Source: Dictyostelium discoideum (Eukaryota). Taken from it: 64,000 nt of DNA. This document shows positions 51,101 to 52,557 of the stretch, piece by piece (within the stretch, counting starts at the first letter, position 1; every line of letters begins with the position of its first letter). The notes under the pieces are model-generated. The model was not told the origin of the DNA. It searched no databases and worked only from the letters and a program-made list of their open reading frames with translations. The stretch lies in the NCBI GenBank assembly GCA_000004695.1, contig CM000155.2, forward strand, positions 2,880,001 through 2,944,000, in the 5' to 3' direction. Made by a program: the position numbers and the translations under genes.

Positions 51101-52557
51101 TGTTTACAAGCACCTTCAGAGATACAATGAATACAAATCAAAGATAGTGATGGTGATTTCTCTTTTTGACATTCTCTACAAAGATAAGCTCTATTAAATA
51201 TGAAACCATTACAATGAATGCAAATCTTTTTAAATTGAATATCATTATAATGATCGGGTTTCTCTTCGGATGAAATTCTTTCCTCTTCCATAACTGAAAG
51301 ATCAACACGTTCACACCATTGAATATTTTGAACTATTTTAATTAATGTATAAATTTCTTTTGAAACTTCTTGATTTAATAAAATTTGATTGGATTGAGTT
51401 TTAATACATTCATCAGCTAATGATAATCTATTAATTAATGAATGAAATGCAATTGATTTAATAGGAAAATGTTCTTTCTTTTTTATTGACCGATAAATTG
51501 GCAGGATATGTCTGTAGGAGAGCTCTAAATTTTGATAACTCATTCTATTCCATGACAATTTCATAGACTTACCACCGACATTAAAATATTGATAAATCGA
51601 ACCCGGTGGTATTATAACCAAATCACCTTGTTTCTGCTCCATAAAATAAACTGGAAATGTTGCTTTCGAAAGATCATCCAACCTAATAAACATCTGTTTT
51701 GAATCATTATCAACTGGAACACCAGTTTTAGTTTTCCAAAATTTTGATGCCTCTTCAAAATCCTTACTATTTGTACAAAACCAATAAGTTTTACTTGTTC
51801 CACCATTGTAAACCATTAAATTATACCCAATTGATCCTGCTACTTCCCTTTGACCTGGTGACCAATAATCACTACCATCAATACAAATATGTGTTGAATT
51901 TGGTTGTAAATGTCCTGGTAAATCACATACTAAATCACCATTATCTTTTTCCCTTAAAAATCCATATAATTTATTATATTCTTCAATATATTTTGTCCAT
52001 TCTGGTGGACATGGTATATCTTTTCTATAATAAAATGATGATGGTATTGTATTTTGATTATTTAAATTATTTAAAATATTTGAATTATTATTATTATTTG
52101 GATTATTATTTAAACTATTTGGATTATTATTATTATTATTATTATTATTATTATTAATTGAATTATTATTATTATTAATTGGATTATTAAATTGATTAAA
52201 AACTTGTTGATTTTGATTAAAATTACTATTATTATTATTCGTATTATTTGGATTATTTGGATTATTATTTGATTGATTTGAAGACATTTTATTTAAATAA
52301 TCAATATATTGACCAACTGTCCAATGCTCAGTATTTTTAGAATCACCATCTATTCTAACTGTTATTTCTAGATTACTATATTTGTCTTTTATCCATTGAG
52401 GTGTAAATATATCAGTTTTCCAATCTTTGGTGGTATTTGAAATTACAATTGGCATACCATCTTGAATCACCCTTCTCTTTACAATTTCTGAATTTAAAAT
52501 TTGATAATCTATTCTTTCACCATTTATAAATTTATAACTTTCTAAAACATCGTTCAT
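48133..52557 (-). CDS. JmjC-domain protein of the KDM3/JMJD1 type. Cys-rich zinc-finger clusters lie C-terminal to the JmjC domain, and the protein carries very long poly-Asn, poly-Gln and dipeptide-repeat tracts.
   Basis: A single 1474-aa ORF. The JmjC core reads ...THICIDGSDYW...NLMVY...KTYWFCTNSKDFEEASKFW...GDLVIIPPGSIYQYFNVGGKSMKLSWN. This aligns to the KDM3A segments NLHLDVSDAANVMVY, ALWHIYAAKDTEKIREFL and [25 protein letters not shown]. Downstream are CIHCNGFIFNRAYLCRECQ and CHQCK...CQKKFCSQCLW...CLFCLNKCNCSACNRK. Coding microsatellites include (AAT)n, (CAA)n, (CAACCA)n and (CATCAA)n. Confidence 0.5.
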   Translation of the reverse strand: MNDVLESYKFINGERIDYQILNSEIVKRRVIQDGMPIVISNTTKDWKTDIFTPQWIKDKYSNLEITVRIDGDSKNTEHWTVGQYIDYLNKMSSNQSNNNPNNPNNTNNNNSNFNQNQQVFNQFNNPINNNNNSINNNNNNNNNNNPNSLNNNPNNNNNSNILNNLNNQNTIPSSFYYRKDIPCPPEWTKYIEEYNKLYGFLREKDNGDLVCDLPGHLQPNSTHICIDGSDYWSPGQREVAGSIGYNLMVYNGGTSKTYWFCTNSKDFEEASKFWKTKTGVPVDNDSKQMFIRLDDLSKATFPVYFMEQKQGDLVIIPPGSIYQYFNVGGKSMKLSWNRMSYQNLELSYRHILPIYRSIKKKEHFPIKSIAFHSLINRLSLADECIKTQSNQILLNQEVSKEIYTLIKIVQNIQWCERVDLSVMEEERISSEEKPDHYNDIQFKKICIHCNGFIFNRAYLCRECQKEKSPSLSLICIHCISEGACKHKSQILMESIQCSTMESIIENAKKILQSLCSLIERLGHSISPVNLDELNQNPNGQLIINNNQVSPGTIAFNQVVLFQEDQKATCHQCKLARPRNKIAYCHKKVEEHGKKRKSRKMKCQKKFCSQCLWNRYQVQLVDCLSQRKWECLFCLNKCNCSACNRKRSSDKDSINNQNNNNNTPNELSPINSAQTTPQTKSPSKMSPYVTSQNHLLNINNNNPNNNPNTNNNGSTNNNNNNPNNNNNNNNNNNNNNNNNNNNNNNNNNNNNNNNNNNNPNNNNNNNGSTNNNNNNNNNNNNNNNNNNNNNNNNSGSSNSNSIHRHHPYFQLQSNQDPFINYTPPTVKSEKPTTKSNNSSTNSSTNSSNNSSNKNNNNNNNSNLSVNNNSNGNNNNNNNSTNSSSNNNNDTNNNTNNNNNNNNNNNNNNNNNNTNNKNSNNNNNNTNNNNTINNNNNINNNNNNNNNNNNNNNNNNNNNNNNNNSTNNINSIMGDINNNNPNNNNNNNNNNSPKIKSEPNESPTSQTINTQNTLNLPNPTVSNNQQFYNHYNQQIQSQNMYPMVSYDPNIGYYDPSYHQYFQQNPYNPHQQLVHFSPNTQFYPVSYPLSMNPTFMTYQQQQLQQQQQQQQLQQQQLHQLQQLQIQPQQQQQQQQQQQQQQQQQQQQQQTAILHQHTQEISPQPSFASYQPINNFNNTNISMQPQSQYHQQMQYQQSPLPQQHQNQNQHQHQHQHQHQHQQNQNQNQNQNQNQNQNQQHQQPQPQPQPQPQPQPQPQPQPQPQPQPPQQQQQPQQQGQQPQQQQNQQQINKNNNNSSPLQFNNNTNYPIFNNGINHQPNLPVQMQEINKPNSNFNTPTDFVSGTSSYPFADNYNNNNNNNNNNNNNNNNNNNNYNNGAKLQHQQTNINHDTNTTLIKIETKEEIGSVNNTNNDMSNNLQFNPNTLPSPLLPSINKKKNGTVANFSPIYGPGHLLYNVDYFSLENSEPTFERSSINLE

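Follow-up and report, generated by a model that had tools for sequence, protein, structure and literature searches.

A CbfA/DMM-1-family JmjC protein of Dictyostelium discoideum that lacks the canonical iron-binding triad, a probable retained pseudoenzyme

A 64,000-nucleotide stretch of the Dictyostelium discoideum genome (contig CM000155.2 of assembly GCA_000004695.1, forward-strand positions 2,880,001 to 2,944,000; hereafter the window) carries on its minus strand a gene for a 1474-amino-acid (aa) protein in which a JmjC domain is followed by two Cys-rich zinc fingers (ZF1 and ZF2) and a long low-complexity tail. Competent JmjC oxygenases dependent on Fe(II) and 2-oxoglutarate (2OG) require an H-x-D/E...H triad of iron ligands, and two of these three ligands are replaced in the window protein. 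Since the canonical triad is absent, the protein is probably not a working 2OG oxygenase. We regard it as likely that it is a retained JmjC pseudoenzyme of the CbfA/DMM-1 family (Q236-x-E238...Y322 at the triad columns), with a pocket that was remodelled in the ancestor of its lineage and a fold under purifying selection, and that it acts non-catalytically, by analogy on chromatin.

The gene is most likely cbfB, a name suggested by the organism, by paralogy to CbfA and by the published description of CbfB (PMC2661138). CbfA and CbfB have been described as paralogous in the region of the JmjC domain and two zinc fingers and to have unrelated C-termini (Lucas et al. 2009, PMC2661138), and work on the two proteins has assumed a chromatin-modifying JmjC activity (PMC2661138). 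No statement that CbfB lacks the iron triad was found in the searchable literature. Both the gene and its family have been described before, as have other JmjC pseudoenzymes; what may be new here is incremental, namely the mapping of the triad to Q-x-E...Y, the antiquity of the change among dictyostelids and the contrast with an intact CbfA.

Position of the iron-binding triad

The initial annotation of this region, an alignment by eye to the KDM3/JMJD1 JmjC core, placed the H-I-C of THICIDGSD (residues 222-230, window 51868-51894) opposite the KDM3 H-L-D and a Tyr of IIPPGSIYQYFNV (residues 315-327, window 51577-51615) opposite the distal His, and proposed that the Fe(II)-binding triad was missing. 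Both strings are present in the protein, and the absence of the canonical triad was borne out by four independent alignments, all of which identify Q236, E238 and Y322 as the triad columns, with Tyr in place of the distal His in every one. The first motif had been placed 13 residues out of register, as is evident from the KDM6B, CbfA, family and KDM3B alignments. As read from these alignments, the triad is Q-x-E...Y and not H-x-C...Y, with two ligands lost and the carboxylate kept as Glu.

In the first alignment, a phmmer search against the PDB, SPGQREVAGSIGYN falls opposite KDM6B TPGHQENNNFCSVN, with SPGQRE opposite TPGHQE and GSIYQYF opposite GTVH-WV. The second, from BLASTP, pairs SPGQRE with TPGHID of CbfA and GSIYQYFN with DSVHQVVN. 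The third, an hmmalign alignment of the best 150 of 637 family relatives, has H-D-H in 102 sequences and H-E-H in 23, against QEY in the window protein, and the fourth, a 63-sequence family profile, sets the triad columns on TTNLHLD and APHQVHN of KDM3B (E 7.5e-15). The H-x-D/E...H pattern is thus kept in 125 of the best 150 family members, CbfA included. The first His of these intact members lies at the Q236 column in 125 of 125, and the distal family His is invariant at the Y322 column.

An alternative that would rescue the initial register reads H223-x-x-x-D227 as the remnant of HxD, and the protein as a KDM3 orthologue with a moved zinc finger. THICIDGSD does superficially resemble NLHLDVSD, and KDM3B is the family's best solved sequence relative. 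However, the His of KDM3B, KDM6B and CbfA in each case aligns 13 residues downstream, at Q236, and hmmalign places H223-D227 on the LMIYIG strand of the family, with the His and Asp/Glu columns (Q236 and E238) the same 13 residues further on. The H223 column is occupied by Met in 85% of intact members and by Arg in the orthologue from Synstelium, and the D227 column by Gly in 96% of intact members; residues 223-227 and 232-237 form two separate strands in the AlphaFold2 (AF2) model. A ZZ finger and a 4CXXC_R1 finger placed after JmjC are, moreover, common to hundreds of fungal and amoebozoan proteins that carry the triad at the downstream position. On the profile alignments the initial register is refuted, and a KDM3 orthologue of this kind is left with almost no probability.

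A proper triad elsewhere in the protein, made up of the Asp of HICID and a downstream His, is ruled out, because not a single His occurs from residue 224 to residue 349. The codon at Q236 is CAA in the window gene, versus CAT (His) in the orthologue from a soil metagenome described below, and the codon at Y322 is TAT.

The JmjC fold

The window protein belongs to the JmjC superfamily by both profile and fold. When residues 1-652 were scanned, residues 248-328 matched the Pfam JmjC profile (PF02373) at 42.4 bits (E 1.1e-10; cut-off 24 bits), and in the phmmer search of the PDB KDM6B was matched at E 1.3e-5. The Pfam match spans profile positions 23-105, with the HxD segment dropped, whereas that of CbfA spans positions 2-114. 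The AF2 model made with the family alignment has a mean predicted local distance difference test (pLDDT) score of 85.2 and a predicted template modelling (pTM) score of 0.85, with pLDDT above 90 across the barrel and disorder confined to a poly-Asn insert. Its double-stranded beta-helix is like those of solved JmjC domains, with KDM6 at the top of the Foldseek matches, followed by KDM5 and plant JMJ14 (best E 1.5e-18).

An hmmscan of the full-length 1474-aa protein returned only zf-4CXXC_R1, with no JmjC match even at E <= 1. Because the match appears when residues 1-652 are searched alone, this miss is probably an artefact of the low-complexity tail and the bias that it introduces. For Dictyostelium annotation, the case illustrates that long low-complexity tails can mask genuine domains in routine scans.

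Family membership and zinc fingers

In a BLASTP comparison, residues 1-652 aligned to CbfA (O97101) along 473 aa at 30% identity (E 6e-56). The match takes in JmjC and the two Cys clusters and goes no further, the tail past ZF2 being unalignable to CbfA. The D. discoideum sequence KAM9949415.1 clusters with CbfA (O97101), and the assembly that encodes it, GCA_054883475.1, also contains an exact coding match to the window ORF at 17244-18395. Word-index homologue searches gave three proteins in all, and the candidates of the first of these searches were swamped by poly-Asn words; it was an exhaustive search with a profile hidden Markov model that opened the family, yielding the 637 relatives, many of which match all three modules.

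The position of the zinc fingers C-terminal to JmjC had initially been remarked on as unusual. The clusters do lie there, at residues 446-490 and 563-650, but the arrangement is no oddity, being the norm of the CbfA/DMM-1 family as represented by the 637 relatives. The window protein has the order of that family, an N-terminal JmjC domain and then two Cys-rich regions, the second of which is zf-4CXXC_R1. A JmjC domain with fingers behind it is the defining trait of the CbfA-like proteins found in dictyostelids and in filamentous fungi (PMC2661138), and proteins with an N-terminal JmjC domain and a diverged zf-4CXXC_R1 are found in fungi, including Neurospora DMM-1, and in Amoebozoa and Naegleria (PMC10538959).

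The Cys columns of ZF1 are 91-100% conserved in the family, and the family profile matches the ZZ regions of dystrobrevin (E 3.5e-4) and dystrophin (E 1.8e-3); one relative (P0005) matches Pfam ZZ_ADA2 at E 1.8e-4 and 22.0 bits, below the cut-off of 27.5. ZF2 matches Pfam PF10497 (E 1.3e-8 to 2e-8) and the CDCA7 structures, the latter at E 2.6e-12 with the family profile and at E 1.5e-4 with the window sequence alone. With residues assigned from motif spacing, ZF2 would be a diverged finger in the scheme of PMC10538959, and one that falls outside class I, the class of hemimethylated-DNA sensors.

Several family members have a PWWP domain at their C-termini (P0002, E 1e-10; P0005, E 1e-14), with a weak match in CbfA (P0151, E 0.003), and the ancestral architecture may have been JmjC-ZZ-4CXXC_R1-PWWP. 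No PWWP domain was detectable in the window protein by Pfam scan; the N/Q-rich tail is found there instead.

CbfB-type orthologues and the remodelled pocket

Neighbour-joining analysis of the JmjC region groups the window protein in one clade with sequences from a soil-metagenome dictyostelid (P0001/L003), a EukProt dictyostelid (P0003) and Synstelium polycarpum (P0002), which together are referred to here as CbfB-type. A comparison with dictyostelid orthologues had been proposed in the initial annotation, and its outcome is consistent with loss of the triad: the three orthologues read HEY, QEH and TAV, respectively, against QEY in the window protein, such that the full triad is present in none of the four, and the set of missing ligands differs in every one. 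Drifting triad columns of this kind are the pattern expected of sites freed from constraint.

The four CbfB-type sequences also have six further changes in common, each at a position where relatives with an intact triad are 92-99% conserved: Y225 is replaced by C, G, N and N, G227 by D, T231 by Y, T233 by S, C240 by A or S, and V324 by Y. The invariant residues N246, Q308, D312, N326, K333 and W336 are kept. These shared changes point to a single, early remodelling of the pocket that preceded the divergence from Synstelium, and because S. polycarpum belongs to the clade, the CbfB-type change would predate deep dictyostelid splits.

The metagenome orthologue, which is the closest, lies on a contig (L003) of Joint Genome Institute metagenome 3300028164. 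A frameshift in a T run within ZF1, at L003 1840-1870, caused it to be called as a protein of 411 aa, and its continuation, comprising ZF1, ZF2 and a Q-rich tail, was called as the next gene (L003 1814-3802).

Single triad losses are scattered elsewhere in the family, for example in a chytrid sequence that reads KPY and in a CbfA-type dictyostelid protein with an AT-hook that reads HNY. The latter (P0041, an 813-aa EukProt dictyostelid protein) falls in the CbfA clade, carries the AT-hook GRPPKN and has H-x-N...Y at the triad columns, so that one species at least has lost the triad in the CbfA lineage as well; D. discoideum CbfA (P0016/P0151) keeps H-I-D...H.

Selection on the JmjC core

ZF2 is the most conserved domain, at 83-86% identity to the two closest orthologues; the JmjC core reaches 68-70%, and the helical domain that follows it 39-43%. 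The ratio of non-synonymous to synonymous substitution rates (dN/dS), estimated by the Nei-Gojobori method against the metagenome orthologue, comes to 0.27 in the JmjC core, 0.28 in ZF1, 0.10 in ZF2 and 0.44 in the helical domain, values that are rough since dS, at 0.8-1.3, is near saturation. The combination of a conserved fold with purifying selection points to an old, retained pseudoenzyme and not to decay.

A pseudogene or decaying domain was considered and rejected in view of the intact open reading frame (ORF), the confident fold and a dN/dS of about 0.27. A milder form of the same idea is that the JmjC region is a decaying relic without a function of its own, and that the zinc fingers and tail alone matter. 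It would accord with the strong conservation of ZF2, with the variation of the triad columns among orthologues and with the report that most gene regulation by CbfA requires the C-terminal domain only (PMC2661138). The JmjC core, however, is better conserved than the helical domain or the linker and has a dN/dS on a par with that of ZF1; it is confidently modelled, with pLDDT above 90 across the barrel, and retains many family-invariant residues. In addition, D227, Y231, S233 and Y324 are fixed in all four orthologues, which suggests a new conserved surface. We consider it improbable that the JmjC region is a relic, and favour its retention as part of a pseudoenzyme.

Proposed function

Judged by its sequence, the window protein is most likely catalytically inactive as a 2OG oxygenase, with no canonical hold on Fe(II). 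The opposing possibility is that it is a still-active oxygenase with a non-canonical metal site, formed by Gln236, Glu238 and Tyr322 or by Glu238 and water, and perhaps with altered chemistry or an altered substrate. The carboxylate E238 is kept in three of the four CbfB-type sequences, and the JmjC core is under purifying selection. S233 (a conservative replacement of Thr) and the family-invariant N246, N326 and K333 are candidate 2OG contacts by their position in JMJD6, KDM3 and KDM6 alignments, rather than from coordinates, and Epe1, discussed below, requires its distal Tyr for function (PMC7192584). Against an active enzyme stands the drift of the triad columns (Q/H/Q/T, E/E/E/A and Y/Y/H/V), which never hold all three ligands and therefore look unconstrained rather than like a new conserved metal site; the strict H-x-D/E...H of most of the best 150 relatives and the replacement of six neighbouring conserved positions count against it as well. 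We also know of no 2OG oxygenase with Q-x-E...Y. An active enzyme with an unusual metal site accordingly has, in our estimation, a small chance of being correct.

For the pseudoenzyme that we favour, a mode of action can be proposed by analogy. The JmjC cup, dead as an enzyme, would be put to use as a module for binding or for conformational change. Of the two fingers, ZZ-like ZF1 would engage the tail of a protein, which by analogy could be the N-terminus of histone H3, and ZF2, the 4CXXC_R1 finger, would engage DNA, while the long N/Q-rich tail would give multivalent protein interactions. Jointly, these modules may regulate chromatin or transcription without demethylation, as reported for Epe1 and DMM-1, and a role as reader or scaffold is plausible by analogy with these two proteins.

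A more far-reaching proposal, which we hold to be possible yet unlikely, is that the CbfB lineage is an ancient, dictyostelid-wide dead offshoot in which the remodelled pocket (D227, Y231, S233 and Y324 fixed, ligands drifting) has taken on a new conserved ligand-binding role, as a methyl-lysine or histone-tail reader or as a metabolite sensor. With its ZZ and 4CXXC_R1 fingers, the protein would then act as a non-enzymatic anti-silencing or boundary factor, possibly partnering or competing with CbfA over tRNA-gene-targeted retrotransposons. There is almost no DNA methylation in D. discoideum.

Several points weigh against the pseudoenzyme reading. The side chains of Gln, Glu and Tyr are all able to ligate metals, and PHF2, with H...D...Y, is reportedly active, which would leave room for residual or altered metal chemistry. 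That Q236, E238 and Y322 meet at the former metal site is expected from alignment rather than measured on coordinates. There are only four CbfB-type sequences, and one of these comes from the frameshifted metagenome contig, in which the error lies in a homopolymer; the near-saturated dS leaves the dN/dS values approximate, and the name cbfB is a likely one and not a certain one.

Gene layout and neighbouring elements

The ORF list of the window gives the gene as a single uninterrupted ORF, the parts of which are collected in Table 1. The position of its N-terminus coincides with those of the orthologues P0001 and P0003. A missing upstream exon was considered and is unlikely, as the N-terminus agrees with the orthologues and with CbfA.

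Table 1. Features of the JmjC gene in the window. The codon of residue i starts at window position 52557-3(i-1).
Feature	Window position	Strand	Basis
Complete ORF including stop codon, 1474 aa; CbfA paralogue, most likely cbfB	48133..52557	-	ORF list; BLASTP to CbfA O97101; N-terminus matching orthologues
Residues 1-105, N-terminal strands and helices of the JmjC fold	52243..52557	-	AF2; KDM3B and CbfA alignments
Residues 106-172, poly-Asn insert within the JmjC fold, predicted disordered	52042..52242	-	pLDDT <50; Asn content
Residues 173-340, JmjC double-stranded beta-helix core	51538..52041	-	Pfam JmjC; phmmer; AF2; conservation
H223-I-C-I-D227, strand preceding the metal-binding strand	51877..51891	-	Family alignment; AF2
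Q236-R237-E238, true HxD/E position by alignment, first His replaced by Gln (CAA)	51844..51852	-	KDM6B, CbfA and family alignments
Y322, distal-His position, His replaced by Tyr (TAT)	51592..51594	-	KDM6B, CbfA, KDM3B and family alignments
Residues 341-423, helical domain joining the JmjC core to ZF1	51289..51537	-	AF2
Residues 446-490, ZF1, ZZ-like, CxxC-x10-CxxC-x11-CxxC-x5-CxH	51088..51222	-	Conserved Cys columns; ZZ matches
Residues 563-650, ZF2, CDCA7-type zf-4CXXC_R1, diverged class	50608..50871	-	Pfam PF10497; CDCA7 structures
Residues 651-1474, low-complexity tail rich in N, Q and P-Q repeats	48136..50607	-	Composition

Residues 1-105 match the N-terminal part of the KDM3B catalytic domain by the family profile and residues 20-93 of CbfA by BLASTP. 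Within this segment, residues 11-90 are modelled by AF2 with pLDDT mostly of 89-98, and both ends of the segment score lower. The AF2 strands of the JmjC core lie within residues 223-338, the helices of the helical domain at residues 341-357, 366-387 and 392-416, and a helical linker sits between ZF1 and the second Cys cluster.

The description of the protein as embedded in poly-N and poly-Q tracts was accurate, there being a 67-residue poly-N insert as well as the N/Q-rich tail. The insert, which is about 60% Asn, separates the N-terminal JmjC strands from the barrel and is flanked by residues with pLDDT above 90; Asn makes up 60% of residues 89-172. The 824-aa tail is 36% N and 17% Q, and no Pfam domain was found in residues 651-1474 when the full-length protein was scanned.

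Upstream of the JmjC gene, at a distance of about 0.9 kb, the minus strand carries a retroelement without long terminal repeats (non-LTR; window 53475-55687). It consists of a 291-aa ORF1-like frame (54812-55687) and the start of an ORF2 with an apurinic/apyrimidinic (AP) endonuclease (53475-54812; Exo_endo_phos, E 2.5e-10), which ends at an N run, an assembly gap at about 53381-53473. A tRNA-Ile(AAT) gene is found at 56034-56106 on the minus strand, with the retroelement some 350 bp downstream in the same orientation, a position that we take to be typical of tRNA-gene-targeted TRE3-type elements. That a CbfA paralogue adjoins a TRE-type element is a coincidence, and is of note given that CbfA binds TRE5-A. 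A second 291-aa ORF (62975-63850, minus strand) has the same length as the ORF1-like frame and no Pfam match, and is probably another copy of this retroelement family. The plus-strand ORF at 56457-61811 (1784 aa) has the FANCI S1, S2, HD2 and S4 domains, with E down to 6e-54, and is a homologue of Fanconi anaemia group I.

Implications

JmjC proteins are routinely annotated as histone demethylases. If a CbfB-type protein cannot bind iron in the canonical manner, its function has to be sought in binding and not in catalysis. The D. discoideum genome would then hold a natural pair of one intact and one dead family member, CbfA with the triad and the CbfB-type protein without it, and one more case would be added to the small set of non-enzymatic chromatin JmjC pseudoenzymes, which includes Epe1 and possibly DMM-1. 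Loss of the triad has, furthermore, recurred within the CbfA/DMM-1 family. In practice, the finding mostly corrects an annotation and gives Dictyostelium genetics a lead, and no new principle is involved.

Comparison with known systems

CbfA (O97101) and the window protein have in common the order of JmjC domain, helical region, ZF1 and ZF2, and both contain Asn-rich regions. Unlike the window protein, CbfA has a full triad, H163-I-D165...H246 by numbers counted from the alignments, and a C-terminal domain with an AT-hook and a weak PWWP match, neither of which is found in the window protein with its 824-aa N/Q tail.

The same domain set and order is described for DMM-1 and the fungal CbfA-like proteins (PMC10538959, PMC2661138), DMM-1 being compared here by description. 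Fungal members, from chytrids and Mortierellomycota, are among the closest matches of the window protein; most fungal members of the family, unlike it, keep H-x-D/E...H. No demethylase activity was detected for DMM-1, which acts on heterochromatin boundaries (PMC9023284, PMC7192584). Its role is tied to histone H3 trimethylated at lysine 9 (H3K9me3), HP1 and DNA methylation, a context that the window protein need not share.

Epe1 of Schizosaccharomyces pombe carries a natural His-to-Tyr change at the same distal triad position. Demethylase activity has not been detected for it (PMC7192584, PMC9023284); it works by binding HP1, its JmjC domain serving non-enzymatically for interaction or regulation (PMC7192584). 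The replacement of the distal His by Tyr is thus common to Epe1 and the window protein; unlike the latter, Epe1 keeps its first His (H297) and belongs to a different JmjC subfamily. To our knowledge, ZZ or 4CXXC_R1 fingers have not been reported for Epe1. PHF2 is presumably a further protein in which Tyr replaces the distal triad His.

The comparison with KDM3 made in the initial annotation is supported at the level of the family, in that KDM3B and JMJD1C (PDB 6rbj, 4c8d and 2ypd) are the nearest solved relatives of the family profile (E 7.5e-15), with HQVxN around the distal His; the window sequence alone matches KDM6B and not KDM3. KDM3 proteins have their zinc finger N-terminal to JmjC and, unlike the window protein, an intact triad. 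Neither of these KDM3/JMJD1 features was found in the window protein, which has no Cys cluster in residues 1-172.

By fold, the best matches for residues 1-652 are fragments of KDM6A, KDM6B and UTY (Foldseek E 1.5e-18, template modelling (TM) score on the target of about 0.7, some 540 aligned columns). KDM6 and the window protein have a common order of JmjC domain, helical domain and zinc-binding domain, and the same H-x-E-type spacing, with Glu as the carboxylate. KDM6 differs in keeping H...E...H and in having no 4CXXC_R1 finger, identity is 12-14%, and UTX and UTY carry N-terminal tetratricopeptide repeats. The arrangement is therefore KDM6-like by fold, the triad is not, and the family profile scores KDM3B higher.

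The zf-4CXXC_R1 domain of CDCA7 is matched by ZF2 with its CxxC pattern conserved. The Gly of CDCA7 that is associated with immunodeficiency, centromeric instability and facial anomalies (ICF) syndrome (RGQFC) stands opposite a Lys (QKKFC) in ZF2, as numbered from motif spacing.

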